A program made the position numbers and the translations under genes. Under the pieces are notes generated by a model. It was not told the origin of the DNA and made no database searches. It was given only the letters and a program-made list of their open reading frames with translations. Positions 6,448 to 59,732 of a stretch of DNA of 64,000 nucleotides are shown here, piece after piece. This stretch comes from an uncultured Acidobacteriota bacterium (lineage in GTDB: Bacteria; Actinomycetota; Acidimicrobiia; Spongiisociales; ZC4RG35). Location of the stretch: contig CAWBJJ010000008.1 of the NCBI GenBank assembly GCA_963789135.1, positions 15,720 through 79,719 on the forward strand, read 5' to 3'. The first letter of the stretch is position 1. Every line of letters begins with the position of its first letter.

Positions 6448-8499
6448 TTGGAACCCGAGAAAGTTCGGAATGTCGCGCTGGTCGGCCACGGCGGAAGCGG
6501 TAAGACCACCCTCGCCGAGGCGCTCCTCTTCATCGGTGGCGCCACCACCAGACGCGGCTCAGTGGAACAGGGCACGACCGTTTTCGACCACGAGCCCGAG
6601 GAGATCGAGCGAACGATCTCGCTCGGGCTGGCGGTGGCCTCCCTCGAGTGGCAGGGCCACACCATCAATCTCATCGACACACCCGGATCCAGCGACTTCT
6701 CGGGTGATGCCAGGGCCACGCTCCGCGCCGCTGACCTCGCCCTATTCGTGGTCTCCGGCGTCGACGGGATCGAGGTCCAGACCGAGCAGTTGTGGAGGAT
6801 CGCAGGCGAGGAGTCGATCCCCCGCGCAGTTGTGGTCACCAAGCTCGACCGCGACCGATCTTCCTTCGAGAGGACTCTCGACCAGCTTCGTCAGGCCTTC
6901 GGCAAGGCGATTGCCCCGATTCAGGTCCCGATCGGGGCCGAGGATGGCCTATCTGGCGTGGTGCGGGTCGCCAGCGAGCGCGCCTACACCTATTCCGGCG
7001 ACGGCAAGGCCGGAACCGAGATCCCGCTCCCGGCGGAGGTCGAAGACCGGGTACACGCCGCGCACACCGCGCTCGTAGAGACAGTTGTCGAGACCGACGA
7101 CGCGATGATGGAGGCGTATTTCGAGGGCACCGAGCCCTCCCGGGAGGACATCGTGGCGACGGTGCACCGCGGGATCCTCGACGGGACCCTGCACCCGGTG
7201 ATCGTCACCTCGGCAGAGAAGCTGATCGGCATCGACCTCCTCGCCGAATTCATCGTCGACTACGGCCCCAACCCCCTGGAGCGGCCGATCCCGCGGCTCT
7301 CGTCGGGGGACAGCTTCGCCCCCGCCGTCGATGGGCCTGTGCTCGCATATGTCTTCAAGACCGTGTCCGACCCATTCGTGGGCAGGATCTCGATGTTCCG
7401 CATCTTCTCGGGGACGATCAAGGCCGATCAGGAGCTCGAGTTGGCCCGAGGGGGAAAGGTCCGGCTCCACAACCTGTTCCTGCTCCAGGGCAAGGACCAT
7501 CACGATGCGGCCGACCTCCCCGCCGGTGGGATCGGCGCGGTGGCCAAGGTGGAGAACGTGATGGTTGGCGACACGATGCGATCGCATGGCCTCAACGCCA
7601 CCGTCGAACCGGTCACCTATCCCAAGCCGGTGGCCGAGGTGGCGATTACACCGGTCTCTCATCACGACGAGGAAAAGCTGTCGACCGCCCTGCACCGAAT
7701 CGAAGAGGAAGACCCCACCCTGCGCATCGAAAGGCGGCCCGAGACCGGGGAGACGATCCTCGCCGGGCTCGGCGACAGCCACCTCGACGTGACTCTGGCC
7801 CGCATCCACCGCAAGTTCGGGGTCGAGGTCGCCTCGTCGCTGCCGGTGATCCCCTATCGGGAGACGATCACAACGTCGGGTGAGGCCGAGGGCAAGCACA
7901 AGAAGCAGAGCGGCGGCCGGGGCCAGTTCGGGGTGGCTTCGGTCAAGTTCGCCCCGTTGCCCAGAGGGTCCGGCTACGAGTACATCGATTCGATCAAGGG
8001 TGGCTCGATTCCCCGCCAGTTCATCCCGGCCGTGGACAAGGGCATCCAGGAGTCGCTGCGTCGGGGGATCCTGGCCGGTTACCCGGTGATCGACATCTCG
8101 GCCGAGGTCTACGACGGCAAGTTCCACTCGGTCGACTCCGACGAGATGTCGTTCCGAATGGCTGGCATCCAGGCGGTCAAGGCCGCCGCGATGAAACTGC
8201 GCCCAATCCTCCTCGAGCCCGTGATGAGGGTGACGGTCACGGTCCCCGAGGAGCATCTCGGCGACGTGATGGGTGACATCAACTCCAAGCGGGGCCGGGT
8301 GCTGGGCATGGAGGGCGAGGGAAACCTCAGATCGGTGGTCGCCGAGGTTCCTATGGCCGAGATCCAGCAGTACGCGGCCGAACTGCGGTCTTTGACCTCA
8401 GGACGGGGTAACTTCGAAGTCGAATTCGATCACTACGCAGAAGTGCCCCACAATGAGGCGCAGAATGTGATCGCCGCCGCTCAGTCGGCCGAAACGTAA
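6448..8499 (+). CDS. elongation factor G-like protein (EF-G2 paralog)
   Basis: 683 aa; G domain VALVGHGGSGKTTLAEALL...DTPGSSDF...TKLD; EF-G domains II-V; not adjacent to rpsL/rpsG/tuf. Confidence 0.85.
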   Translation: MEPEKVRNVALVGHGGSGKTTLAEALLFIGGATTRRGSVEQGTTVFDHEPEEIERTISLGLAVASLEWQGHTINLIDTPGSSDFSGDARATLRAADLALFVVSGVDGIEVQTEQLWRIAGEESIPRAVVVTKLDRDRSSFERTLDQLRQAFGKAIAPIQVPIGAEDGLSGVVRVASERAYTYSGDGKAGTEIPLPAEVEDRVHAAHTALVETVVETDDAMMEAYFEGTEPSREDIVATVHRGILDGTLHPVIVTSAEKLIGIDLLAEFIVDYGPNPLERPIPRLSSGDSFAPAVDGPVLAYVFKTVSDPFVGRISMFRIFSGTIKADQELELARGGKVRLHNLFLLQGKDHHDAADLPAGGIGAVAKVENVMVGDTMRSHGLNATVEPVTYPKPVAEVAITPVSHHDEEKLSTALHRIEEEDPTLRIERRPETGETILAGLGDSHLDVTLARIHRKFGVEVASSLPVIPYRETITTSGEAEGKHKKQSGGRGQFGVASVKFAPLPRGSGYEYIDSIKGGSIPRQFIPAVDKGIQESLRRGILAGYPVIDISAEVYDGKFHSVDSDEMSFRMAGIQAVKAAAMKLRPILLEPVMRVTVTVPEEHLGDVMGDINSKRGRVLGMEGEGNLRSVVAEVPMAEIQQYAAELRSLTSGRGNFEVEFDHYAEVPHNEAQNVIAAAQSAET

Positions 8500-32665: not shown

Positions 32666-33979
32666 TCAAGGCGGGCCAACCATTGCTTCCATGTCGGGGC
32701 CGTAGACCCCGACGTATTCGACATCGACCCAGTCCCCCACGGTCCCCCGGTCGAGTCGGACAACTCCGTCGATCTCGGGAGCCTGGCGATGGCTCCGCCC
32801 TACCGGAACCCCGTCCTCCACCTGGTCGACCAGGACCCGGTCGTTGCGACCGACCCACTCGGAGTTGCGGTGCTCGGTCATCTCGTCCTGGATCCGTGAC
32901 AGGTGGCGCAGCCTTTCCATGGCGACGTCCCGCGGAACCTGGTCATCCATCGTCGCTGCCGGCGTGCCCGGCTCCGCCGAGTAGGGGAAGAAGCCGGCCC
33001 AGTCCAGGAGTGCTTCGTCGAGGAAATCTGCGAGCAGGTCGACGTCGTCTTCGGTCTCTCCGGGGAAGCCCACGATGAACGATGAGCGCAGTGCCGACTC
33101 GGGATCGAGCTCCCGGATCCTTGCGATCAGGGCGAGGTGCTTCTCGGTGTTCCCCGGGCGCTTCATCCGGCGCAACAGACCGCCCGAGACGTGCTGCAGG
33201 GAGAGGTCGAAGTAGGGCGCGACCTTCGGATCGGAAGTCATCACCTCGAGAAGCCGCTCCCGGATCTCCCGGGGATGGAGGTAGAGGAGGCGCAGCCGCT
33301 TCAGCCCGTCGACGTCGGAAACGAAAGACAAGAGGTCGGGAAGCCCCCCTGGCGCCTGGATGTCACGGCCGTAAGCGGCGAGGTCCTGGGCGACCAGGAC
33401 CACCTCACTGACCCCTCCCGCGACCAGTCCAACCAACTCCTCACGAATCTCGGTGGGCCGCCGGGAGCGCTGCTTGCCGCGGATCGAGGGGATGGCGCAA
33501 AAGGTGCACGGCTTGTCGCATCCCTCCGCGACCTTGAGATACGCATACGGCAGCCCTGACACCGGGCGCCCGGTGGCGTGGAGGATGTCCATCGCCGGGC
33601 GACGGCGAATCTCGACCGGCCGCCAGTTGGTGAGGCCATCGATGACTCCCACCAGTTCCCCGTAGCGGTCGATCCCCAGGACCGCATCGACCTCCGGCAA
33701 CGCGGACTCGACTTCGGAGCCGAACCTCTGCGCCATGCAGCCGATGACGATGGAGCGGGCTCCGGAGCGCTTGCGCTCCTCCAATTCCAGGATCGCCTCG
33801 ACGGACTCCGCCCGGGCTTCCTCGATGAAGGCGCAGGTGTTGACCATCACGACGTCGGCGTCCTCCGGGGAGTCGGCCAGGGAGTAGCCGGCCTCGAAGA
33901 GCATGGCGGTCACCTTCTCCGAGTCGACCTGGTTCTTGGCGCAGCCGAGCGTTGTGAGCCAAACGGTGGGAGAAGCCAT
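32666..33979 (-). CDS. rimO: 30S ribosomal protein S12 methylthiotransferase RimO
   Basis: MTTase N domain WLTTLGCAKNQVDSE, radical SAM CDKPCTFC, TRAM; 437 aa. Confidence 0.9.
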   Translation of the reverse strand: MASPTVWLTTLGCAKNQVDSEKVTAMLFEAGYSLADSPEDADVVMVNTCAFIEEARAESVEAILELEERKRSGARSIVIGCMAQRFGSEVESALPEVDAVLGIDRYGELVGVIDGLTNWRPVEIRRRPAMDILHATGRPVSGLPYAYLKVAEGCDKPCTFCAIPSIRGKQRSRRPTEIREELVGLVAGGVSEVVLVAQDLAAYGRDIQAPGGLPDLLSFVSDVDGLKRLRLLYLHPREIRERLLEVMTSDPKVAPYFDLSLQHVSGGLLRRMKRPGNTEKHLALIARIRELDPESALRSSFIVGFPGETEDDVDLLADFLDEALLDWAGFFPYSAEPGTPAATMDDQVPRDVAMERLRHLSRIQDEMTEHRNSEWVGRNDRVLVDQVEDGVPVGRSHRQAPEIDGVVRLDRGTVGDWVDVEYVGVYGPDMEAMVGPP

Positions 33980-47097: not shown

Positions 47098-49374
47098 TCA
47101 GACCTCGACCTGCTGCCGGGCCAGCACCTCTTCCAACTCTTCGACCGTCATCAGCACCTCGCGTGCCTTGCTCCCCTGCGACGGACCGACGACGCCCTGG
47201 CGCTCCAACATGTCCATCATCCGGCCTGCCCGGGCGAACCCGATGCGGAGCTTGCGCTGCAGCATCGATGTGGAGCCCAACTGGCTGCGCACCACCATCT
47301 CCATCGCCTCCCGGGCGAGGGCGGCGTCCTCGGCATCTTCTTCTTCGACCTGGGCGGCCGCCGCCGAAGCGGCAGCCACCTCGAGTACTTCCTGGTCCTT
47401 GTAGACCGCGTCCTGCTGCTTACGGACCCACTCGACGATGGCCTGGACCTCGCTCTCCCGGACCCAGGCCCCCTGGATCCGCTGGGCGCGGGGCTCCTTG
47501 GCGGTGACCACCAGCATGTCGCCCATCCCCACAAGCTTCTCGGCACCGGACCCGTCGAGGATCACCCTGCTGTCGGTCTGCGAGGCGACGCTGAATGCGA
47601 GGCGGCTCGGGATGTTGGCCTTGATCACACCGGTGATCACGTCGACAGATGGGCGCTGGGTGGCGATCACGAGGTGGATCCCGACGGCGCGGGCCATCTG
47701 GGCGATCCGGACCACCGACTCCTCGACCTCCCGCCCGGCAACCATCATCAGGTCGTTGAGCTCGTCGATGATGATCACGATGTAGGGGAAGCGATCGAAG
47801 CCATCGGGGTCGAGCCCGCCGATATCGAGCTTCTCCCGGTATCCCTCGATGTCGCGGACCTTGGCGTCGGCCAGCAGGTCATAGCGGCGGTCCATTTCGG
47901 CGACCGCCCACTTCAGGGCGTCGTTGGCCTTCTTGGGGTTGGTGATGACCTTGGTGAGGAGATGGGGAACCCCGTTGTACTGGCCCAGCTCCACTCGCTT
48001 CGGGTCGACCATGATCAGCCGCACGTCATCGGGATGGGTGCGCATCAACAGGGACGTGACGATCGAGTTGATGCACGACGACTTGCCGGCCCCGGTGGCC
48101 CCGGCGATGAGGACATGGGGCAGCTCGGAGAGGTTGAGCAGCTTGGAGTCCCCGGAGATGTCCATGCCCAGGCCCACGGTCAAGGGATGGGCCGGGATCG
48201 CCGCCTCCGGACTGGAGAGGATGTCGCCCAGTGAGACCAGCCTCCGCTTGTTGTTGGGAACTTCGACTCCGATCGCCGACTTCCCGGGGATGGGAACCAG
48301 GAGACGGACGTCTGGCGTGGCCAACGCGTAGGCGATGTCGTGGGACAGGCTCGACACTCGATTCACCTTGACTCCGGGCGCCAGTTCCACCTCGTATCTG
48401 GTCACGGTGGGGCCGGGGACGATCTTGGTCAGGGCGGCGTCGACACCGTGCTGGGTCAGGGTCTCCTCCAGCTGACGGGCGGTTTCCTCGAGCGAGCGTC
48501 GGTTCACCTCTCCGCCGGTGCCGGCATCGAGGAGGCTGAGCGGCGGGAGCCGGTAGCCGGTGGTGGTGAGATCTACGACCACAGGCTTCTTCACCGGCAG
48601 CGCCGCAGTGGCCGGCTTATCTGTCTTGGGACGGGACGGCTTGGGACGCTCGTGCCGGCCCTTGGCCGGGCCGTCCACCGTCATCGGGCCGATCGCGACA
48701 TGAGCCGGTGCCTTGGGCTTGGGCGTTGGTGAAGTCAATGCCTTCGCAGCCTCCCGGAACGATCGGAACGCGCCACTCACTCCAAGGAACAACTCACGAA
48801 CGCTGGTGTGGGTGGCAACGAGGACCCCCATCGCCATCATCGACACCAGGACGACAAACGCACCCCAGTGCCCGAGGACGCGGCGCAACGGGAACGCGAG
48901 CAACGATCCGACGGCGCCGCCCCTCTCCTTGACCAGTTCGATGTTGGGCATGAGGGCGACCGCCCCGGTGAGCAGATGGAACAACGCCAGTGAGCCGATG
49001 AAGGCGGCGATGCTCCCCGCGACCAGGCGACGTGCGCCTTCCCGGGGCTTTCCGGTGATCAGTGCGAGCCCGACGCCGATCAGGGCAAGCGGCACCGCAT
49101 ATCGCCAGACGCCAAAGAGGAACAAGCTCGCAGTCTCGATGCCTTCTCCAAACGGGCCCGCCAGATCGACGAACGCCAGGATGATCAAGATGGCGATGAC
49201 TATGAGGAACAGGCCCCAGACGTCATCGGTCTGGCGACCCAGAGTTGTCCGAACGTATTCACGACCCGCCACCAGCTTCTGGCGGAACGTGCCCTTCTTC
49301 GGCTTGGTCTTTTTCGCTGTGGACACCCGTCTCCGCCCGGAGGAACCCTTCCGGGTGGGTGTCCTTGTTGGCAT
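47098..49374 (-). CDS. ftsK: DNA translocase FtsK/SpoIIIE
   Basis: N-terminal TM segments, linker, motor domain with Walker A GATGAGKS and Walker B IIIDE, C-terminal gamma wHTH; 758 aa. Confidence 0.9.
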   Translation of the reverse strand: MPTRTPTRKGSSGRRRVSTAKKTKPKKGTFRQKLVAGREYVRTTLGRQTDDVWGLFLIVIAILIILAFVDLAGPFGEGIETASLFLFGVWRYAVPLALIGVGLALITGKPREGARRLVAGSIAAFIGSLALFHLLTGAVALMPNIELVKERGGAVGSLLAFPLRRVLGHWGAFVVLVSMMAMGVLVATHTSVRELFLGVSGAFRSFREAAKALTSPTPKPKAPAHVAIGPMTVDGPAKGRHERPKPSRPKTDKPATAALPVKKPVVVDLTTTGYRLPPLSLLDAGTGGEVNRRSLEETARQLEETLTQHGVDAALTKIVPGPTVTRYEVELAPGVKVNRVSSLSHDIAYALATPDVRLLVPIPGKSAIGVEVPNNKRRLVSLGDILSSPEAAIPAHPLTVGLGMDISGDSKLLNLSELPHVLIAGATGAGKSSCINSIVTSLLMRTHPDDVRLIMVDPKRVELGQYNGVPHLLTKVITNPKKANDALKWAVAEMDRRYDLLADAKVRDIEGYREKLDIGGLDPDGFDRFPYIVIIIDELNDLMMVAGREVEESVVRIAQMARAVGIHLVIATQRPSVDVITGVIKANIPSRLAFSVASQTDSRVILDGSGAEKLVGMGDMLVVTAKEPRAQRIQGAWVRESEVQAIVEWVRKQQDAVYKDQEVLEVAAASAAAAQVEEEDAEDAALAREAMEMVVRSQLGSTSMLQRKLRIGFARAGRMMDMLERQGVVGPSQGSKAREVLMTVEELEEVLARQQVEV

Positions 49375-49436
49375 GTAGCTGAAAACAATACATCGCCATT
49401 GGCTTTGGCTAATGGCATGCGATTCAGGGACAGCGA

Positions 49437-49967
49437 TCAGGGGCGGAGAATGGTGATCCCGCCTCCCGCTGCGATCACCGACGAAGCCAGGTGCCCGGTC
49501 CCGCCCGGCCCGTCACCGCCCTTCCCGTCCCAGAGGAATATGCCCTGCAGCCTGCCTCCTGCCTGCCTCGCCTCGGTCAGCATCCTCTCCGAGTTGAGGG
49601 TGTGCGGGTCATCCGCTCCGAACATGTCAGGGCTGGGGCCGACCACCTCGACCCGTTGGTCGTTGATGACCATGTAGAACGACTTCACCCATTCCTCACC
49701 GGCGAAGCGGACGGATTCCTCGAGGAATTCCTCCTGACCTCGGGGCAGGAAAGCGGAGAGCCTGCGATCGCTCTTCAGCCACTCCTCGGCGAATAGGAGG
49801 TCTCCCCCGCAGGCGAGCCCCGTGATAGCGCTCACGTCAGGGCCATCGATGAGCCAGATGGCGTCGGCGATGTCCCGCCTCACCTGATGCACTCGCTCCG
49901 GCGGGAAGCGCGGGGGTTGACGGCCGGGAGCATCGACCATGTGCCCGGCAAATAGGACCACCTCCAC
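49437..49967 (-). CDS. LOG/SLOG-like Rossmann-fold protein (predicted nucleotide-binding/processing)
   Basis: VVLFAGHMVD strand + ITGLACGGDLLFAEE Gly-rich loop + C-terminal DGPGGTGHL resembling LOG-family PGGxGT motif; assignment by pattern only. Confidence 0.4.
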   Translation of the reverse strand: MEVVLFAGHMVDAPGRQPPRFPPERVHQVRRDIADAIWLIDGPDVSAITGLACGGDLLFAEEWLKSDRRLSAFLPRGQEEFLEESVRFAGEEWVKSFYMVINDQRVEVVGPSPDMFGADDPHTLNSERMLTEARQAGGRLQGIFLWDGKGGDGPGGTGHLASSVIAAGGGITILRP

Positions 49968-49987
49968 TTCCGAATCGTACGGGTGTT

Positions 49988-51562
49988 TCAGTGGCGAGCG
50001 GCCTTGTGACGCCCGTACTCCTCGCGGATCGCCTTGATCGTGATCCCCTCGTTGGCCTGGTAGGTCGCCGACGGGTCATCGAGCCGGCGCATCTTGGCGT
50101 CCCCGGCGTGGTGCACCGCCATCAGCTGCCATGCCTGGTTGAAGACAGGGCTTCCCGAGCTGCCGCCCTCGGTCGGGGCGGTGTAATGCACCCGAAAGCT
50201 CTCCGCGTCATAGGCGAGGAGGTCGTTGCCCCGAATTGAGAACTTGAGCCCTCCCCCGGCCGGGTGGCCGATCACATAGACGTACGCCCCTTCGGTGACC
50301 GGCTGGGGGACCTGGGCGACCTCTATAGGCTGGGTGATGGCCGCCTCGGGCCCCGGGAAGCTGAGGAACGTGACGTCGCAGGTCTCGGGCGGCGAACTCC
50401 AGACGCACTCCATCCCCGTGAGCACGAGATCGGCCCCGTCGACCGACTTGGTCACATCGAAAACGGCCTGGGCCTCGCCAGGGAGCAACTTGCCCACTCC
50501 GGGCTCGGGGCTGCAGACGTGGGCATTGGTGATGAGGATCGGCGACTCCCCGAGCTCGGGATCGAGCAAGGAGCCGCGGACCAGGAAGCCGGTCCCCCAG
50601 GGCTCACCGGAAGCGTCGGTGATCTTGGCCACCGACTCGGCGCACTGCAGCCCTCTCAGCAGGTGGTTGTAGCCCACAGGCAGTGCGGTCCCGAAGATCT
50701 TCTCCAACTGGCCCGGCGAAGTGGGCAACTCGACCTGCGCTGCCCCTCCCAGCTGAAGCTGGCTGTCGGCCATGGCCACCAGGATCGGGTGATGGGGCTC
50801 GAGCTCCCAGATGTCGACCAACTGGCGACGGAGGCTCCGCATCTCGAACGAGGTGACACTGCGACTGGTCGAGAGCTGTTCGGCCGCCGCCACCGCTTCC
50901 TTCTCGGCACCCTCGTCACCGAGAGCGACCAGCGCTTCGATCTCGGTGCTCCGGTCCCACACCGAGCGCAGTTCGGGGTCCTTGTCGCGGGCCAGGCCCA
51001 GGACCTCTCTGGTCAAGGTTGTTGTGTCGACCGCGTCCGACAGTTCGATGCCGTCGCGCTTCGCCCGGCAGGTCAATGCGAGGAGGTTCACGCCATGCCA
51101 GGCGGGGTCGGTGCCACCCTCGTAGCCGGCGCGATAAGCATCGATAGCGCCTACCAAGTCCTCGGAACGGCCCCCGTCGACGAAACGCTCCTTTCGGAGC
51201 CGGCCCATCAGCCCGAGCACCTCGCCCTTCGCCGTGTCGTCGTCGATCGACAGCAAGGACTCGGCGAGCGCCAGGTCGGCGGCGTGAAACGCCCCGATCT
51301 CGATCAACGCCTGGCAATAGCGGCGGCGGGCACCGGCGCCGACCGCCCCCACCGCCAGTGCGGCCTCCCCGACGTCGATGACGTGGTTGAACTCACGCCT
51401 CTTCTCGAGCAAGGCCATGACCTCACCAGCATCTTCCGGGGTGACCGATCCTTCCCACACCTTGGCCCGGACGTCGTCGACCGCGGCCGAGAGGTCTTCG
51501 GGCTTGCCCGAATCGAGGCTGGCTTGAAGCCGCTCACCCAGCGGCGAGTCGAGAAGACCCAT
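49988..51562 (-). CDS. TPR-like helical N-domain fused to trypsin-like (S1) serine peptidase
   Basis: C-terminal ...GTGFLVRG...ITNAHV (His)...GADLVL (Asp)...GGSSGSPVF (Ser); ~290-aa alpha-helical repeat N-terminus. Confidence 0.7.
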   Translation of the reverse strand: MGLLDSPLGERLQASLDSGKPEDLSAAVDDVRAKVWEGSVTPEDAGEVMALLEKRREFNHVIDVGEAALAVGAVGAGARRRYCQALIEIGAFHAADLALAESLLSIDDDTAKGEVLGLMGRLRKERFVDGGRSEDLVGAIDAYRAGYEGGTDPAWHGVNLLALTCRAKRDGIELSDAVDTTTLTREVLGLARDKDPELRSVWDRSTEIEALVALGDEGAEKEAVAAAEQLSTSRSVTSFEMRSLRRQLVDIWELEPHHPILVAMADSQLQLGGAAQVELPTSPGQLEKIFGTALPVGYNHLLRGLQCAESVAKITDASGEPWGTGFLVRGSLLDPELGESPILITNAHVCSPEPGVGKLLPGEAQAVFDVTKSVDGADLVLTGMECVWSSPPETCDVTFLSFPGPEAAITQPIEVAQVPQPVTEGAYVYVIGHPAGGGLKFSIRGNDLLAYDAESFRVHYTAPTEGGSSGSPVFNQAWQLMAVHHAGDAKMRRLDDPSATYQANEGITIKAIREEYGRHKAARH

Positions 51563-51567
51563 GCGTG

Positions 51568-52536
51568 TCAGATACCGAGGCCCTGGCGGACCGCTGCCTG
51601 CACCACCTGCTGCCGGAAGTACTTCCCGGACGGATGCCGGAATGCACCTCCGTTCGACACCACCTCGTCGACCACCTCAGGCTGCCGCTTGCGCTTGTAG
51701 TCGTTGGCGAGAAGCGGGTCGGCGGCGCATACCGGGTCGAGGCGGTCGACCACATTGACCCAGCGCGGAAGCTCGTCGGGAAAGCCGTCGTCCTTCGACC
51801 ATTCCGGCTTCAGGTTGTGCTGGACCTCGGACAGCCCCAGTGGTGTGCCGAGCGTGATCAGCATGTCGACCTTCTTGGTGTCGGCCACGCGCTTCAGGCA
51901 GTCATAGGCGATCACCGAACCAAGACTGTGGGCGACCACGACGTGGGGGCTGCCGTCGATCTCGCCGAGGTCGCCGACGAAGCGCTTCCGGACCTCGTCG
52001 CGGACCTTGAAATTGGCCCCGGCTCGCGGTGAGTGGCTGGAGTTGAACAGGTAGTGGTGGACGTCACGGAGCAGCACCCGCATCATCGGCCTCTTGATGA
52101 ACCAGGGAAGCGGCACCGCCTCCAGTGCCGAGGCCGCGGCCACGCGGGCTTGGGCCGCGACCGGAGGGTCTTGACCGCCGGCCTCGACAGGATGGGTCGC
52201 CTGCTCGATGTCGTCGGGGTGGTCGAGGTCGAGGTCCGAGATCATCGACTCGATGAAGGCCTTCTCCTCACCGCTGGCCGAGTCGATGTAGGACTCGTCG
52301 ACCTCAGTCAGGGCACCGGGCTCGACTCCCTCGTATTCGATCGACTCCTGAGCGCCAGGGGCATCGGTGGCCGCCGCGTACATCACATCCGCCCAATACA
52401 CCATGGATGAAGTCACCCCGTAGACGTCGAGATCGACACCGTCACCACCGTCGGCGAGATCCCGCTTCCAGGAGCTGAGCAAGCGAGCCGGCGAAGGCTG
52501 GTTCATGATGCCGTGAACGAAGGTGATGTGGCCCAT
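51568..52536 (-). CDS. alpha/beta-hydrolase fold esterase/lipase (DUF676/PGAP1-like)
   Basis: ITFVHGIMN (oxyanion HG), VVVAHSLGS (GxSxG nucleophile elbow), ITLGTPLG; long acidic insert; GAGGAGG SD. Confidence 0.65.
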   Translation of the reverse strand: MGHITFVHGIMNQPSPARLLSSWKRDLADGGDGVDLDVYGVTSSMVYWADVMYAAATDAPGAQESIEYEGVEPGALTEVDESYIDSASGEEKAFIESMISDLDLDHPDDIEQATHPVEAGGQDPPVAAQARVAAASALEAVPLPWFIKRPMMRVLLRDVHHYLFNSSHSPRAGANFKVRDEVRKRFVGDLGEIDGSPHVVVAHSLGSVIAYDCLKRVADTKKVDMLITLGTPLGLSEVQHNLKPEWSKDDGFPDELPRWVNVVDRLDPVCAADPLLANDYKRKRQPEVVDEVVSNGGAFRHPSGKYFRQQVVQAAVRQGLGI

Positions 52537-52551
52537 CGAGTCCCTCCTCTT

Positions 52552-53526
52552 CTACGTCGAGCCTAGGTCGACGCCCTCGTACTGATACCCGCTGTTGTCA
52601 CCTTCGACGTCCATCTCGATGGTCCCGGTCGGGATCCGGGCACATCCCCCGTCACTGTCGCCGCCCGCCGAGAAGTTCTCGATCACATAGGCGACCAGTG
52701 GTGTCTCATCGGGGCTCGGGCTGCCCCCGGTCGAGCTGAACCCGTCCGGAAAGTCGTCAGAGCAGTCGACGGTCACCGGGGAAGAGAGTTGAGGCCCGGG
52801 AACGTCGATCTGGACGGAGCTTGCGTCTGCCGTCCCATCGATCCTCGCCCCCTCGGTCTCACTGAGCTCGAACAACAACGCGAAGCTGTGGCGGGCTCCC
52901 TGGTATCCGAGGCTGGTGGGCACCGGCGGCTGGATCCATCGGTCCGGCGGGTAGCCCTGGCGCTCGGCTTCAGCGGTGACGAAGTACTCGTGATTCTGCA
53001 CGCCCAACTCGACGGCGAACCCCTCATCGCCCCCGGCGACGCATGTCGCACTGCCGCCCACCGGGATCGGGTCGAGGGAGCACACGTCTTCGCCGAGATC
53101 CGAACCGTCGAACCCTGAGATCTCCAGGCCGACCACGGTCCCGTTGAGCTGGTCGAGGTTCTCGACGGTGAACTGGACCCAGTAGCGGGGGCTTCCGAGC
53201 TGGGGAACGGACTCCGCCGAGAACCCCGCCGGGAGGAATGGGCCCCCGGCCGACTCACCTACCGCCACAGAGATGAGCACCGACCCCGCGCCTCCTGTGA
53301 AGTCGAACACCGCGGCAGCGATCACCGGGGGCAGGGTTGCCGGGGGCGAGGAGTCGGTGGTGTTCGTCGCCTCCGACGTCGTGGTCTCCTGGCCGGCAGT
53401 GGTCGTCGTCGCCGGATCGACGCTGGTGGTGGTGCTTGCTCCGGTTGTGGTGCTCGCTTCACTCTCGCCGGCGCAGGCGGCGAGTGCCAGGCACAGGGCC
53501 AGGGTCGATGCAATGGTGCGCTTCAT
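52552..53526 (-). CDS. secreted lipoprotein with Thr-rich linker and beta-rich domain
   Basis: MKRTIASTLALCLALAACAG lipobox (LAAC); TTTGASTTTSVDPATTTTAGQETTTSEATNTT linker; GAGGAG SD. Confidence 0.6.
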   Translation of the reverse strand: MKRTIASTLALCLALAACAGESEASTTTGASTTTSVDPATTTTAGQETTTSEATNTTDSSPPATLPPVIAAAVFDFTGGAGSVLISVAVGESAGGPFLPAGFSAESVPQLGSPRYWVQFTVENLDQLNGTVVGLEISGFDGSDLGEDVCSLDPIPVGGSATCVAGGDEGFAVELGVQNHEYFVTAEAERQGYPPDRWIQPPVPTSLGYQGARHSFALLFELSETEGARIDGTADASSVQIDVPGPQLSSPVTVDCSDDFPDGFSSTGGSPSPDETPLVAYVIENFSAGGDSDGGCARIPTGTIEMDVEGDNSGYQYEGVDLGST

Positions 53527-53575
53527 CCCGTACTCCTCACCCCGGAGTTGGGGGGCCACCACCCTACGCGGTCAC

Positions 53576-55637
53576 TTACGGCGCAGGGCACACGACGGTG
53601 TCGATCGGGTCGCCGGGGAGGCTGTTCGCCTCCTCCAGATACGCGTCCGCGGTGTCGCTCAGTCCCAGACCGCACTCGTAGACGAAAGCCAGCGCCATGA
53701 AGAATTCGCGCTTGCTGTCGAGGTCCGGGGCGATCTCGGAGGCAGTCTCGAACTCGGCTATGGCAGCCTCGTTGTCCTCGTCGAGTAAGTGGACGGAGCC
53801 GAGGGTGGCGTGGGCGTCCGCGGCGACATCCAACAACCTGGGCTCGGACTCGATCACCGGCATCAGTGCATCGACAAGCGTCACGAACCTCTCGCCGCCG
53901 CTCGACACCATGGTTGTTCAGGCAGAGATTGATCCGTGCCATCTCGAGCCGCGATCTCTCCGGGAGAAACGAGAACTCGGGGGCCTCCATGAGGGCCACC
54001 TCGTCGAATCCGGCGATGGCGGCTTCGAGCCCTTCGACGTCCCCGGCGCCAGTTCCGCCGCAGGCCGCTCCCTTGGCGCGCTGAAATCCGACCTCCGCCA
54101 GTCCAAAGTGGGCCCGGGCGTAGTCGGGCTCCAGCTCGAGGGCTCGTTGGAAATACCCCTCGGCATCGTCGAGATCCTCCTGCAGGCCGCTCACGTTTCC
54201 CAGGAGATTGAAGACAACTTCCTTGCCATTGCTGTCGACCCTCGACCCGGGCCAGTCGATCGACGCTTGAACGAAGCGCTCCTCAGCCTGGTCGAAGTCA
54301 CCGAGCTGATAGAAGCTGAGCCCGATCGCGAGCTCGGTCAACGCCGTGATCTTGGGTCCCAGGCGCTGGGCGGCGATGCTCAGAGTCCCGGGGTCTGTGC
54401 TGAGAATGGTCTGGTCGTCCATTGCATAGGCGCCGGCGAGCTCCTTGGCGCCGGTCAGACCGCGGTCCGAGATGAAGAACTCGGTGGTGAGCAAGGGCGC
54501 GCCGTTCTCGGTGTCCAGGGTGCCGTAGACGACCACGTCGGCGGCGACTCTCGAGGCGAGCTCGGCCGCTTCCTGGGCCCGTTCCTCTGGGGTGTCCCCC
54601 GCCAGAGGCCCTACCTCGTCAGGACCGGCCACCGCCACCTCGACGTCGGTCTCTTCGGCCACCGCCTCGTCGATTTGGCGGTACAAGGTCTCGGAGACAC
54701 TCGAGGCCGACTCGCCAGTCGACGCGAACTCGGCAACCGCGATGTTGAAATCACCCCCGATTGGCCCCAGTGTCACCACGACGTTGGCTGTGGCCGCCGA
54801 CTCGGCCCCATCCTCGTCCCGAACGGTGAAGCCAAACGAGTCCGGTCCTCGATAACGGGATGGGCCGGTGTAGGAGATCAGGCCACCACCCAGATCGGCG
54901 ATGCTGCCGCCATGCGTCGACTCGTTGTCGACCGTGACCGACAACTCGCCGGAAGCGTCATCCTCGACCCATTCGAGAAGATCGATCTCGGTGGGAATGT
55001 CCCCGATCGCGGTCACCGCCTCCGGAGTGATGGATGGTGGCCGATTGCCCCGAACTACGAGCGCCACACCGAGCACCGCGATTATCAGGACTGCCGCGCC
55101 CAGCCAGGCCCACAGCGGGAACCCGTGCCATCGGCGACGCCAGCCTCCGATGTGGTCGATCAGGTTGTCGACGTCGTCGTCGAATCGATCCGGTCGCACC
55201 GTGACCGCCTGACGGCCAGGCAGGGTCTGCAGCGGCTCGGGCAGTTGGTCGGCGGTGGGCAGGTCGGCGTCTCCGACCAGGACCGGGATCACCTGAACCC
55301 GCCCCATCTCCAGCGCGATGGCGATCTCCCTACGCACCCAGTCTTCAGGGTTGTCGAGACGGCGCTTGCCCCCGGCGTCGGCGGCTAGCCAGTCGGGGCC
55401 GATGATCGCCAGCAGGACATCACTCCTGGCGAGTGCCTCATCCAGAGTGGTGGCGAAGTCCTGACCGGGAGGGATGGTCTCGTGATCAAGCCAGATCGCC
55501 TTGCTCGCGTAGTAATCGGTGAGCGCGGCATGAAGCCGGCCCGCATGTCCTCCCGCATCACTCCGGCGATAGCTGATGAAGATGTCCGGGCTGGCCAGAC
55601 CGCGTTTGATCGAGGCGATCAGTCCAATGCAGAGAAT
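53576..55637 (-). pseudogene. TIR domain - TM - cadherin/Ig-like - TPR repeat protein (one frameshift near C-terminus; no canonical start codon)
   Basis: TIR: SPDIFISYRRSDAGGHAGRLHAALTDYY...LLAIIGPDWLAADAGGKRRLDNPEDWVRREIAIALEMGRVQVIPVLV; TM FPLWAWLGAAVLIIAVLGVALVV; Ig-like LSVTVDNESTHGGSIADLGGGLISYTGP...DSFGFTVRDEDG...VVVTLGP; TPR ...YFQRALELEPDYARAHFGLAEVGF; C-terminal 111 aa continue in frame of 53576..53911 (shift ~53900-53912). Confidence 0.65.
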
Positions 55638-57177
55638 CTACCGCCCGGTCGCCGTCGGCTCCCCGACCGCCAGTTCGAGGCACGCTTTCACTGCGTCGTC
55701 TGCGCGCTCATCATCAGGCACCTCGATGATCGTCGGGCGACCGCCGGCCGAGAGCGAGCCCAGCGTGCCTTCGAGGAGCTCGTCGTCGGTCGTGGCGTCC
55801 ACCAGGAATACCGCTCTGTCGAGGGCGCCCTCTCCGGCCAGCATCTCGATCTCGACGAGGCATCCCTGGTTGTCCGGCCCGAAATCGCGCAGGTCCATGA
55901 GCACCGAATGGCTCATACGCAGCAGCTCGACGACCGCCAACCGCCAGGTGTCGTCGAAGCAGAAGAACTCTTCGACCCGATATCTCGCGTCCGGGTCCTG
56001 GCGCACGACGAGCGATTCGCGCCGCTGCTCGAGAGTGGCCGGCGAATCCACGAAGAGGCGGGGCAGGTCACCGCTGAGGAACGTGAGGAACTCGTCCGGC
56101 TCCACAGAAGCGACCGCGAGGTCCGGGCCACCGATCATCCGCACCGGGCCCAGGTAGCGCCATTGGGCGCTGATCCGGTCCAGGAGTCGCTGGGCGCCCC
56201 GTCGAGGAGAGAACACCCGGAGAACGAGCAGGGCTGCCGGCGCCGAGGGTTTCCGATGGACCACCCGGTAGAGGACCAGGGCCAGGGCGCCCATGGCGAT
56301 GAAGACCGCCATGCCGGCAGCGAAGGCCCAGCCGTCGGTTGGCCTGATGCCGGCCGAGGAGTCGATCGCGAAGACGAAGAACACCGACCCGAGCAGGAGC
56401 ATTTGGTCCGAGAACCCGCTGCCGCGGTACCAGGCGGCGAGAAGCCGGCCGACGAGTACCGCCAGGACCAGCGAGCCTACGAACCCGGCGGCGACACCGA
56501 ACAGGAGCAGATTGGCGTCGCCCCAGTCGATGATCGGGCCTGACGCTGTGATCAACAGGTAGATGGCCTGGGCCCCGGCGATCGCGGCCATCACCGTGCC
56601 GAGGACCAGGGGGCCAACACCCCGGAGGGGCCGCGTCAGGAAGGCGACGACCGCCAACGTCGGGATCAAACTCCACACCCACAGCTCGAACGGCAAGAAC
56701 GGGCCGCTTCCCGCGAACCAACCAGCCGCCATCAGCAAGAGGACGTATATCCCGATGGAGGCCAGCAACCAGCGCCGGGCCCCGCCGGTGACGATCCAGG
56801 TCCCGATCACCGCCGGCCAGGCATAGATCACCGTGAAGACCGTCACTCGGTAGATGGAGAGAGCGATGTCGTTCCAGGTGAGCAGGAGGATGGAAAAGCA
56901 GATGCCTGTGACCACCGCGACCGCGATCACGACCCCGACATTGACCCACACCCCGCGGGGCCTGGTGTCCTGCGGTGACCGCGGGCTTCGACAGGGGTAT
57001 AGGCGAAGTTTGCGAGGCGGCCGGGGCGGCATCGGCCGTTGCTCCACGCCGTTCCATGAGGCGCCGGATCGAGCTCCGGTAGCGACGGAGCAAGAGCCAT
57101 GTGATGGGCAGGGCGAGCACCGCGGCCACCAGGGCGAGGATGAGGGGGATCCCGCCCAGGAACGCCATATCGCTCAT
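55638..57177 (-). pseudogene. polytopic (~12 TM) membrane protein with ~190-aa cytoplasmic C-terminal domain, one frameshift
   Basis: ATG 57177 with GGAGG SD: MSDMAFLGGIPLILALVAAVLALPITWLLL... in one frame, continues ...VWVNVGVVIAVAVVTGICFSILLL... in frame of 57047 (shift ~56970-56990 in GGCCCCGCGGGG); ends at TAG 55638-55640 that is in frame with the downstream TIR domain. Confidence 0.55.
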
Positions 57178-57204
57178 TGGCCTCGCCTCCGCGGCTCGGG
57201 TCGT

Positions 57205-58839
57205 CTAGAGCTCCATCACCACCGGGACGATCACCGGCTTGCGCGCGGTTTCCGCGCGGATCACCTTGCCCACCGCGGACCGAACCGTCTTCTGCAGCTC
57301 TCCAATGTCACTGCGCCCCGCAGCGTGCTCTTCGATCGCTTGGCGCACTGCTTCCGCCGACTTCTCCAGGACGGCGGTCGGGTCGTCCATGAGGCCGTGG
57401 CTGTCGAGGTCGGGGCCGTAGAGGATCTCGCCGGTGTCGTGGTCGATCCCCACGGTGACCACGACCACGCCCTCATCCGCGAGATGGGAGCGGTCGCGGA
57501 GCACCGCAGACTGAACGTCCCCTACAGCCGATCCATCGAGATACACGTAGCCGGCGGGGACAGCCCGGCGCTCCACCATCGTCTTCTTCCCATCGAGGAT
57601 CACCCGGTCGCCGTCTTCGAGGACGTCGACGTGGCGAATGCCCATCGTCCTCGCCAGCTCGGCATGGGCGTGGAGGTGCCGGTACTCGCCATGTACAGGC
57701 ACGAAAGCCCGGGGCCGCAACAGGTTGAGGAAGGTCAGCAACTCCTCGCGGTTGGCGTGACCTGAGACGTGGACGTCGGCGTTCTGGCCGTGGACCACCC
57801 GCGCGCCGCGTCGCATCAGGTTGGAGATCACCTTGGAAACTGCGCTCTCGTTGCCGGGTATCGGCTTTGCCGAAATGAGGACGGTGTCTTCGGGGCCGAG
57901 CTCGACGAACCGGTGACGCCCCTGGGACATGAGGGAGAGAGCAGCGAAGGGCTCGCCCTGGCTTCCGGTGGTGATCATCATCTGCTTGTCCAGCGGCAGC
58001 TTCTCGAGCTCGCTGATGTCGACCAGCGACTTCTCGGGGACCGTGAGAAGCCCCAGCTCCTTGGCCAGCACCGTGTTGCGCTGCATCGAGCGGCCGAAGA
58101 AGGCGATCTTCCGACCCGAGGCGATGCCTGCGTCGACGATCTGCTGGACCCGGTGGATATGAGAGGAGAAACAGGCGGCGAACACCCTCCCCGGGGCGTC
58201 ACGCACGATGTCGGCAATGGGACGGCCAACCGAGCTCTCCGATGGCTCGAATCCTGGCTTCTCGGCGTTGGTCGAATCGGCGAGCAGCAGGCGAACCCCG
58301 CGGCGGCCCAGGGTGGCGAAGGCAGGCAGGTCGGTTGGCACCTGATCGATCGGAGTCGGGTCGAGCTTGAAGTCCCCGGAATGGACGATCACGCCCTCCG
58401 GAGTGTCGAGGGCCACGGCAGCGGCCTCGGGGACCGAGTGGCTGACAGGGATCAGCTGAAAGCGGAACGGCCCATGGTCAGTCCAATTCTTGAATCCAAC
58501 GACACGGAGGTCGGCCTCCACGCCCAGCTCGTCGATCCTCCCCCTGGCAAGCTCCATGCTGAGCCTGGTCCCATAGACCGGCACCGGAACCGCCTTGAGG
58601 AAGTAGGCGAGAGCGCCGGTGTGGTCCTCGTGGCCATGGGTGATGATCACGCACTCGACGTCCTTGGAGCGGGCCGCGAGCCAGGACCAGTCGGGGAATA
58701 CGAGATCGACGCCGAGCATGTCCTCTTCGGGAAACATGAGGCCGCAGTCGATCAATGCGATCTTCCCGGCGATCTCCACGGCGGCGCAGTTGCGACCGAT
58801 CTCCCCCAGGCCCCCGAGAAACGTGACGGAGACGCTCAC
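57205..58839 (-). CDS. rnj: ribonuclease J
   Basis: metallo-beta-lactamase HxHxDH (ITHGHEDHTGAL), beta-CASP and C-terminal domains; GTG start overlapping dapA stop (GTGA). Confidence 0.85.
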   Translation of the reverse strand: MSVSVTFLGGLGEIGRNCAAVEIAGKIALIDCGLMFPEEDMLGVDLVFPDWSWLAARSKDVECVIITHGHEDHTGALAYFLKAVPVPVYGTRLSMELARGRIDELGVEADLRVVGFKNWTDHGPFRFQLIPVSHSVPEAAAVALDTPEGVIVHSGDFKLDPTPIDQVPTDLPAFATLGRRGVRLLLADSTNAEKPGFEPSESSVGRPIADIVRDAPGRVFAACFSSHIHRVQQIVDAGIASGRKIAFFGRSMQRNTVLAKELGLLTVPEKSLVDISELEKLPLDKQMMITTGSQGEPFAALSLMSQGRHRFVELGPEDTVLISAKPIPGNESAVSKVISNLMRRGARVVHGQNADVHVSGHANREELLTFLNLLRPRAFVPVHGEYRHLHAHAELARTMGIRHVDVLEDGDRVILDGKKTMVERRAVPAGYVYLDGSAVGDVQSAVLRDRSHLADEGVVVVTVGIDHDTGEILYGPDLDSHGLMDDPTAVLEKSAEAVRQAIEEHAAGRSDIGELQKTVRSAVGKVIRAETARKPVIVPVVMEL

Positions 58840-59732
58840 AGGCCTTGCAGAGCCCCAACCGCCTTTTCGATGGCTATCAGTGTCTCCTCGGAGGCATCGA
58901 CCAATGGCAGGCGAACCGAGCCCACCGTTTCCCAGAGCCGGTTCATCGCACCCTTCACCGGGGTCGGGTTGGTCTCGAGGAAACACGCCTCACACAAGGG
59001 CAGCAACTCGTGATGGATGCTTCGGGCAATGTCCATCTCACCGGCCAGGGCGGCTTCGACCATGGCCGCCACCCGCCGCCCGGCGAGGTGGCTGATCACC
59101 GAGACCACGCCGATCGCACCGACAGCCATCATCGGCCAGGTGTGCGAATCCTGGCCGCTGTACACCGGCAGGGCAGGGATTCGGTTCACGGTCTGGCTGG
59201 TGAAGTCGACATCCATCACCGCGTCTTTCACAGCAACGATGTTCTCGTGCCGACTGAGCCGGTCCAGGGTCTCGAGCTCGATGAGACGGCCGGTCCGATT
59301 GGGGATGTTGTAGAGCAGCACCGGGACCCCGACGTCTGCGATCGCCTCGAAGTGGGCGACCAGGCCCGACTGGCCCGGCTTGTTGTAATAGGGGGTCACG
59401 GCGAGGGCTCCATGGCAACCGATCTCGCCGGCGCGCCTGGTCAATTCGATCGACTCGGCGGTGTCGTAGCTACCGGTCCCGGCGACCACCATCGTCTTCT
59501 TCCCGGAGACCGAGTCGAGGACCGTCTTGTACAGCGCGAGCTTCTCGGCGGCGCTCAGTGTCGGAGACTCGCCGGTGGTACCGGTGACCACCAGGGTGTC
59601 CGAGCCCTGATCTGCCAGGTATCGCGCCAGGCGCCATGCCTTCTCGTGATCGACCGCGCCGGAATCGGTGAACGGCGTGATCATCGCGGTGGCGACGTGG
59701 CCGAAGGGGGCTTTGGAGTCGAGGCTCACCAC
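58836..59732 (-). CDS. dapA: 4-hydroxy-tetrahydrodipicolinate synthase
   Basis: ...TAMITPF...VVTGTTGESPTLS...; Schiff-base lysine region; 298 aa. Confidence 0.9.
   Translation of the reverse strand: MVSLDSKAPFGHVATAMITPFTDSGAVDHEKAWRLARYLADQGSDTLVVTGTTGESPTLSAAEKLALYKTVLDSVSGKKTMVVAGTGSYDTAESIELTRRAGEIGCHGALAVTPYYNKPGQSGLVAHFEAIADVGVPVLLYNIPNRTGRLIELETLDRLSRHENIVAVKDAVMDVDFTSQTVNRIPALPVYSGQDSHTWPMMAVGAIGVVSVISHLAGRRVAAMVEAALAGEMDIARSIHHELLPLCEACFLETNPTPVKGAMNRLWETVGSVRLPLVDASEETLIAIEKAVGALQGL

Follow-up and report, generated by a model that had tools for sequence, protein, structure and literature searches.

Enzymes that cleave nicotinamide adenine dinucleotide (NAD+) through a TIR domain are represented by SARM1/TIR-1, an NAD+ hydrolase with glutamate E642, and by bacterial proteins such as AbTir, TIR-STING, the TIR-APAZ protein of SPARTA and ThsB of Thoeris, which carry a TIR_2 domain with a conserved Glu. 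Toll-like receptors join an intracellular TIR domain through one transmembrane (TM) helix to a solenoid or Ig-type ectodomain. Here we describe a TIR gene on the minus strand of a 64,000-nucleotide stretch of DNA (the window) from an uncultured bacterium placed in the Acidimicrobiia (assembly GCA_963789135.1, contig CAWBJJ010000008.1, positions 15,720 to 79,719). We judge it probable, overall, that the gene encodes a SARM1-like NAD+-cleaving TIR head on a type II membrane sensor, and that its translation starts without a leader at an AUY (AUU or AUC) codon.

SARM1/TIR-1 is the best match to the TIR domain in both sequence and fold. The two have in common the FISYRR motif, the Asp, Gly and Phe of the BB-loop region, the alpha-C motif and a Glu in the first turn of alpha-C. 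However, identity is only about 24%, the host is bacterial, the loop from beta-C to alpha-C is longer (PDWLAADAGGKRRLDNPE), and the TIR domain stands at the N-terminus, joined to a TM helix and a predicted extracytoplasmic sensor. A SARM1 orthologue (ARM-SAM-SAM-TIR) was considered and rejected, as Pfam gives only TIR_2, Big_9/Cadherin_5 and TPR, with no ARM or SAM. Bacterial TIR proteins are also among the fold matches (7uxu, 9lmq, 8qlp and 8spo, Foldseek), but the locus has no STING, APAZ/Ago, ThsA SIR2/Macro-SLOG or SAVED component and differs from those systems in its membrane-receptor architecture and its operon. Thoeris was likewise rejected: the NCBIfam model ThcB4 scores 36.9 bits against a cutoff of 220, the PADLOC ThsB match is partial (residues 19-84, E 9e-6), and no neighbouring gene matches any PADLOC ThsA model. 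The likeness to Toll-like receptors is one of analogy, with no shared ancestry implied beyond the TIR fold. In contrast to those receptors, the orientation is reversed (N-terminal TIR, type II), TPR and Big_9 take the place of leucine-rich repeats in the ectodomain, and the TIR domain appears to be enzymatic rather than of the adaptor type.

A TIR domain of the SARM1-like enzymatic type

Translation of the minus strand from 57047 to 53523 reads GLASPDIFISYRRSDAGGHAGRLHAALTDYYASKAIWLDHETIPPGQDFATTLDEALARSDVLLAIIGPDWLAADAGGKRRLDNPEDWVRREIAIALEMGRVQVIPVLVGDA... and contains ...GLASPDIFISYRRSDAGGHAGRL...NPEDWVRREIAIALEMGRVQVIPVLVGDA..., with the following elements.

55161..55583, minus strand: TIR domain (Pfam TIR_2, PF13676), predicted to be cytoplasmic and SARM1-like (Pfam, phmmer, AlphaFold, Foldseek)
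55557..55586, minus strand: beta-A motif DIFISYRRSD (translation; F, Y, R and R invariant among 61 TIR_2 relatives)
55455..55487, minus strand: BB-loop region DHETIPPGQDF (phmmer alignment to SARM1 D594...G601...F603)
55311..55343, minus strand: alpha-C motif DWVRREIAIAL (translation, phmmer, AlphaFold model)
55326..55328, minus strand: GAG, putative catalytic Glu, equivalent to SARM1 E642 (phmmer alignment, conservation counts)

An original prediction for this DNA had reported a TIR domain that opens with DIFISYRRSD and has an alpha-C segment, DWVRREIAIAL, paralleling DWVHKEIVTAL of SARM1. Both motifs are found in translation (55586..55557 and 55343..55311), the second aligns with SARM1 column for column, and the Glu codon GAG lies precisely where it had been placed, at 55328..55326. 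The coordinates therefore hold, with the addition that the strand, which had been left unstated, is minus. The TIR reading also stands, but both the absence of a canonical start codon and a frameshift near the C-terminus, described below, had been overlooked.

The similarity to TIR domains goes well past what chance would give. The Pfam TIR_2 profile matches residues 19-159 (55583..55161) with 57.8 bits against a gathering cutoff of 28 (E 2e-15), covering profile positions 1-121 of 122. When all PDB sequences were searched with phmmer, the 19 best matches were SARM1 TIR domains (best E 4e-6). The alignment of ...nPEDWVRREIAIAL... with ...cKDWVHKEIVTAL... is ungapped over that stretch and pairs the Glu with E642 and the preceding Trp with W638 (counted from T561, 7knq numbering). 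An AlphaFold model of the domain, built on 61 sequences, has a mean predicted local distance difference test score (pLDDT) of 91 and a predicted template modelling score (pTM) of 0.87. Its strands, at 7-10, 36-38, 62-67, 103-109 and 133-135 with helices between them, follow the canonical flavodoxin-like order of TIR domains, and W-V-R-R-E forms the first turn of helix alpha-C. In a Foldseek comparison of the model with the PDB, the top 32 matches are SARM1/TIR-1 TIR chains (E 2e-9 to 4e-7, target TM-score 0.75-0.85), with TIR-STING, AbTir, MAL, RPS4 and SPARTA ranking below them. Nothing in the phmmer alignment, the AlphaFold model or the Foldseek matches puts the Glu outside the catalytic pocket.

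Conservation of the pocket positions is nearly complete. Every one of the 55 orthologues with sequence at this column has the Glu, as do 60 of 61 TIR_2 relatives at greater distance. We take the SARM1 pocket to be lined by the Y-R-R within FISYRR, the Asp that follows beta-B, the Gly of the BB loop, the Phe beyond it and the Trp before the Glu. At these positions of the phmmer alignment the window sequence has SYRR, LD, PG, DF and DW, so that this presumed set and the alpha-C Glu are all present and near-invariant: among the 61 TIR_2 relatives, F/Y/R/R are found in 60-61, the Asp and the Gly in 61 each and the Phe in 54, and the Trp position is aromatic in 51. By alignment and fold model the domain is of the SARM1-like enzymatic type, with its predicted catalytic constellation intact, and is most likely a competent NAD+ glycohydrolase or cyclase; the SARM1 alignment, the confident model and the conserved Glu support the earlier preference for an enzymatic over a scaffold TIR. 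Retention of the Glu is, however, the norm among bacterial TIR_2 domains, and this part of the finding is in itself ordinary.

A gene without a canonical start codon

Open reading frame (ORF) calling starts the TIR ORF at GTG 55337, inside the TIR domain. There is no ATG, GTG or TTG in the window between the in-frame TAG at 55640..55638 and this GTG, nor ahead of the TIR domain in nine of ten clade relatives (53-91% protein identity, from ENA, JGI and NCBI assemblies). The one exception is locus L029, whose codon 6 is the canonical TTG, synonymous with the CTG or CTC of the other loci. Ten loci share the pattern TAG (A/G)TT nnn nnn ATC(ATT) GGA CTN ..., with the TIR frame opening behind an invariant TAG at a distance of exactly 18 codons from IFISYRR. 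The comparison shows that the gene has no ATG, GTG or TTG start. Among database gene calls for the family, 50 of 60 start past the F of FISYRR, and many carry no TIR annotation.

The 97 codons that lack a start evolve under purifying selection, with pairwise ratios of nonsynonymous to synonymous substitution rates (dN/dS) of 0.09-0.30 at dS values of up to 1.4, and by this substitution pattern they are clearly translated. Initiation at the first canonical codon (GTG 55337, VRREI...) was rejected: it would remove strands A-C, the position of that codon is scattered among relatives, and the codons before it are under purifying selection. A conserved RNA structure at the 5' end was also rejected (RNAalifold -3.7 kcal/mol, no covariation), and Rfam gave no match within 49000-58000.

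A proposed AUY start on a leaderless mRNA

The start region contains the end of an upstream gene, a candidate promoter element and two candidate initiation codons.

55638..57177, minus strand: upstream gene for a membrane protein with nine TM segments (9-TM) and a cytoplasmic Rossmann-like C-terminal domain (hypervariable; a frameshift is apparent between 57043 and 56900)
55635..55640, minus strand: TAGATT hexamer, putative actinobacterial -10 element (TANNNT) (locus comparison)
55626..55628, minus strand: ATT (Ile), proposed non-canonical start, 6 nucleotides past the hexamer and 15 codons before IFISYRR (locus comparison)
55620..55622, minus strand: CTG at codon 6, alternative near-cognate start (CTG, TTG or CTC among loci)

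The TAG of the hexamer is the in-frame stop that opens the TIR frame, and in the window it also ends the upstream ORF. The hexamer, TAG(A/G)TT, is invariant in ten loci. In L032 it reads TAGAGT, with a 7-nucleotide spacer and its TAG out of frame, and is thus not conserved as a stop codon. In the frame of the upstream gene it supplies a T-ending Ser or Gly codon and an AGA or AGG Arg codon, whereas the strongest ORFs of the window have a GC content at third codon positions above 0.80, which argues for constraint at the level of DNA. The two codons after TAG are hypervariable (LC, LP, QH, LR, AR, GP, PR). At the codon that follows them, nine loci have ATC and two have ATT.

Outgroup genes begin at the same place with a conventional codon. 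The Met of L034, L033 and L031 aligns with the Ile of the clade (M-G-[VL]-R versus I-G-L-R); the outgroup starts ATG GGA GTC AGG (L034), ATG GAT TTA CGA GGC TGG (L033) and ATG GGA TTG (L031) correspond to ATC GGA CTG AGA TCC TGG in the clade. Two ATGs lie close together in L035 (ATG TCA ATG CGA), and the spacing from the first of them to IFISYRR equals that of the ATG in L034 and L033. TACAGT stands 8-10 nucleotides before the ATG in three outgroups (L031, L034 and L035), and a TANNNT hexamer is found 6-10 nucleotides upstream of the start in 14 of 15 loci, L032 included.

This is the arrangement expected of a leaderless transcript. In Mycobacterium tuberculosis, a TANNNT centred 7-12 bp upstream of the transcription start site marks 73% of primary start sites, and a quarter of the genes and most toxin-antitoxin modules are leaderless (PMC3898074). 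As in such actinobacterial genes, the putative -10 element stands 6-7 nucleotides before the first codon (PMC3898074). The window has TAGATT, 6 nucleotides and ATT, and the pattern is kept in 11 clade loci. Unlike described leaderless mRNAs, which begin with AUG or GUG, the 5'-proximal codon would be AUU, or AUC in relatives, and is conserved clade-wide. The best reading of the alignment is that an ancestral ATG changed to ATY where a leaderless or near-leaderless mRNA has its start codon; the conserved AUU at 55628-55626, which is AUC in relatives, is most likely the first codon translated. AUU is known as an initiator from Escherichia coli infC, a rare AUU-initiated gene. The introduction of PMC9094748 counts both AUU and AUC among the rare initiators of bacteria.

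Two other genes of the window, at 33979 and 59729-59732 (minus strand) and one of them dapA, have TAGGCT or TAGCCT, 6 nucleotides and an ATG or GTG at the start of the frame. This TAGNNT-N6-RTG geometry suggests that the organism uses leaderless transcripts.

A second candidate for the initiator is codon 6, which in most relatives shares bases with the TGA that ends the upstream gene (CTGA). Ribosomes that finish the 9-TM gene might re-initiate on the overlapping CUG, as at ATGA or GTGA overlaps, which would imply that the TIR protein is made only in proportion to its upstream partner. The upstream gene does end at a TGA within ATC GGA CTG A in six of the eight loci that have it, L029 carries TTGA at this position (and NCBI calls that TTG as the start), and the third base of codon 6 has become C only where the upstream gene is deleted (L002/L003 and L030). 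Yet in these latter loci the gene is intact and conserved relative to L029 (dN/dS 0.12) despite a non-initiating CTC. Moreover, the upstream gene is missing from L032 and the outgroups, codon 4 rather than codon 6 is the one aligned with the outgroup Met, and in the window and L001 the upstream ORF ends before the CTG. We therefore regard re-initiation at CUG as unlikely, though it is the strongest competitor of the AUY start. By the aligned reading frames the initiator is non-canonical in either case.

Membrane topology and the C-terminal frameshift

The TIR domain, which begins about 15 residues from the N-terminus, is the first part of a protein of about 685 residues in which it is followed by a TM helix, a Big_9 domain, a region of about 130 residues and TPR repeats. 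Full-length homologues of 675-715 residues are annotated in Acidimicrobiia metagenome-assembled genomes. The remaining features of the gene are as follows.

55053..55109, minus strand: single TM helix AWLGAAVLIIAVLGVALVV, with WRRRWHG before it (hydropathy scan)
54771..55046, minus strand: extracytoplasmic Ig-like domain, Big_9/Cadherin_5 (Pfam E 1e-8)
54078..54383, minus strand: TPR repeats of the ectodomain (Pfam TPR_1 and TPR_2, above cutoff)
53879..53882, minus strand: frame-shifting insertion of one base, an additional G following GAC (comparison to proteins P0001 and P0002; alignment with the DNA of L005 and L004)
53576..53911, minus strand: C-terminal TPR part in the shifted frame, ending ...DTVVCPAP* (translation, Pfam, homologue comparison)

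The stretch of about 130 residues between Big_9 and TPR has no Pfam match. The positive charges of WRRRWHG lie N-terminal of the TM helix, which places the TIR domain in the cytoplasm, on the side of NAD+, and the Ig/TPR part outside. The product is a single-pass type II membrane protein with its TIR domain inside and its C-terminus outside.

The frameshift near 53880 is plausibly an assembly artefact. The closest relative, L005, has a different +1 shift five codons later and several further frameshifts elsewhere, and in L004 the RNase J gene is split into two gene calls. Taken at face value, the frameshift, the absent canonical start and the upstream neighbour's two apparent changes of frame would fit a decaying pseudogene, in which the Glu is retained without present function in this organism. 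We consider this improbable: the start-less state is common to the whole clade and under purifying selection, 571 codons run uninterrupted from the ATT to the frameshift, homologues are still matched by both frames past the shift, and the L004 and L005 assemblies are frameshifted at several differing positions (L005 repeatedly, L004 in the split RNase J), which points to assembly error.

It is more improbable still that the domain is a non-catalytic scaffold for protein-protein assembly, comparable to adaptors of the MyD88/MAL type or to bacterial Tcp mimics. Purely adaptor TIR domains do exist, and the TIR domains of MAL, MyD88 and Toll-like receptors are found lower among the fold matches, but the nearest neighbours in sequence and structure belong to the enzyme SARM1, and a near-invariant catalytic Glu with substrate-contacting residues across the family would be unexpected in a pure scaffold. 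Finally, read-through of the in-frame TAG, or a -1 frameshift, could fuse the 9-TM and TIR proteins into one giant polypeptide, as the upstream ORF is in the TIR frame in the window and L001 and a single TAG separates the two in the window, but this can be virtually dismissed, given two stops in that frame in L001 and L027, an upstream gene that lies in another frame in six loci and is absent from L002, L030 and L032, a TAG that is out of frame in L032, the hypervariability of the two codons after TAG, and the absence of a conserved slippery heptamer. The upstream ORF as N-terminus of the TIR protein was accordingly rejected by the 15-locus comparison.

Conserved neighbours of the TIR gene

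The gene is part of a module that recurs in differing flanking contexts across metagenome-assembled genomes of the Acidimicrobiia type. Its members encode the 9-TM protein, the TIR/TM/Big_9/TPR protein, a lipoprotein of about 320-336 amino acids, an alpha/beta-hydrolase-like protein of about 320 amino acids, a protein of about 522 amino acids with TPR-S and Trypsin_2 domains, and a 176-amino-acid protein; a Peptidase_M15_4/PG_binding_1 protein and a second small TIR_2 protein are often added. In the window the six genes occupy 57177..55638, 55628..53576, 53526..52552, 52536..51568, 51562..49988 and 49967..49437, the last four being as follows.

52552..53526, minus strand: lipoprotein with lipobox LAAC and Thr-rich linker, conserved module member
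51568..52536, minus strand: alpha/beta-hydrolase-like protein with AHSLGS nucleophile elbow, conserved module member
49988..51562, minus strand: TPR-S sensor domain and trypsin-like peptidase, conserved module member (Pfam TPR-S 49 bits, Trypsin_2 61 bits; synteny)
49437..49967, minus strand: 176-amino-acid protein of an uncharacterised family, conserved module member

The hydrolase-like protein has an HG motif near its N-terminus and weak matches to lipases of the LCAT/PGAP1 type; it could be a lipid-directed effector. The 176-amino-acid protein travels with the module in at least seven loci and belongs to a family of 400+ proteins with the invariant motifs F-x-G-H-M-x-D, A-C-G-x-D-L-x-F and G-x-G-P-G-G. 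The family has no match in Pfam, NCBIfam, PADLOC or PDB sequences. Its reading as a SLOG/LOG-like nucleotide sensor, prompted only by a likeness of these motifs to those of LOG/SLOG nucleotide-binding proteins, was rejected, since neither Pfam, PADLOC and NCBIfam nor the PDB sequences lent it support when a profile of 47 sequences was used as well.

The module is extended by the M15 peptidase, often with the second TIR_2 protein, in L028 (12485-14293), L030 (10158-11974), L029 (12694-13509) and L001 (13424-14428), the last of which also has an FHA-TIR protein on the opposite strand. These additions are absent from the window, L004 and L005. The distant loci L031, L034 and L035 keep only the TIR gene and a gene of 331-339 amino acids at the position of the clade's lipoprotein.

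PADLOC and NCBIfam gave sub-threshold TIR or protease matches only. A tblastn search of plasmids found isolated TIR domains only and phages gave no match; a link to mobile elements was rejected. A scan of metagenome contigs returned two loci only. In the literature we found nothing specific on TPR-S/TIR/trypsin systems or on transmembrane bacterial TIR sensors.

The 9-TM protein has no Pfam match, and its gene forms a sharply bounded divergent cassette (window 57106..55649, minus strand, versus L005 4532..5960). DNA identity to L005 is mostly 0.80-0.93 on either side of the gene, falls to 0.58-0.73 or becomes unalignable across it, and is back up to 0.95 at the 5' end of the TIR gene. The protein is about 51-53% identical to every homologue, regardless of how closely the genomes are related. 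This hypervariable cassette pattern is typical of genes under conflict-driven diversification. Relative to homologues, the window copy shows two apparent frame changes, at 57043..56900 and 55641..55660 (minus strand): the first 45 residues, which start at ATG 57177, are read in a different frame from the remainder, and a 1-nucleotide indel ends the gene at TAG rather than at the TGA seven codons on where most relatives stop. The gene is deleted in L002/L003 (about 6700-7810) and in L030 (4350-4520), where only short remnants matching residues 49-67 and 494-528 are kept in L030. The TAGGTT...ATC element and the TIR gene are retained in these loci, with codon 6 changed from CTG to CTC.

A possible mechanism

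In the mechanism that we propose, transcription from the TAGATT -10 element (55640-55635) would give a leaderless mRNA with AUU at or beside its 5' end. An AUY start is presumably weak, and we infer that such a non-AUG start would limit the amount of a potentially toxic enzyme. On the model of other TIR enzymes, the ectodomain may cluster TIR domains at the inner face of the membrane, assembling a composite TIR active site. Clustered TIR domains would then deplete NAD+ or make a signal derived from ADP-ribose (ADPR), and this signal might act on the conserved neighbours, namely the 9-TM Rossmann-like protein, the alpha/beta hydrolase, the TPR-S-trypsin protease and the 176-amino-acid protein.

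Several points weigh against this account. Described mycobacterial leaderless initiation uses a 5' AUG or GUG (PMC9094748), and in the literature we found no precedent for AUC or AUU on a leaderless mRNA. A scan for promoters and terminators of the E. coli type was empty, although such a scan is uninformative for an actinobacterial promoter. Retention of the alpha-C Glu is necessary but not sufficient for activity. The window allele could be non-functional, given the frameshift near 53880 and the two apparent frame changes upstream. In addition, the module lies between housekeeping genes in the window (RNase J and FtsK), PADLOC recognises no known defence system, and the roles given to the module partners are guesses.

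Implications for the family

A catalytic Glu alone would make this one more probable TIR NADase, a routine result and a known kind of finding. The unexpected part lies in the missing start codon and the receptor-like architecture: a membrane receptor encoded within a module, and a non-canonical start common to the clade, are what is new here. More tentatively, the whole clade may possess a 'bacterial Toll-like' transmembrane sensor with Ig/TPR outside and a SARM1-like NADase TIR inside, in which ATG has been replaced by a selected leaderless AUC or AUU.

If true, this would be a natural and conserved case of non-AUG leaderless initiation that throttles a dangerous enzyme. The non-AUG start would also hide the TIR domain from standard gene callers. 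In roughly five of six gene calls of the family the annotated start falls within the TIR domain, and many calls carry only the label 'TPR repeat protein'; surveys of bacterial TIR enzymes would therefore miss the family. With a Met codon in the outgroups and ATC or ATT after a -10-like element in the clade, the family offers a clean comparative case for non-canonical initiation. A TIR enzyme carried on an extracytoplasmic Ig/TPR sensor would couple events at the cell envelope to internal NAD+ chemistry, pairing a receptor scheme like that of Toll-like receptors with SARM1 chemistry.

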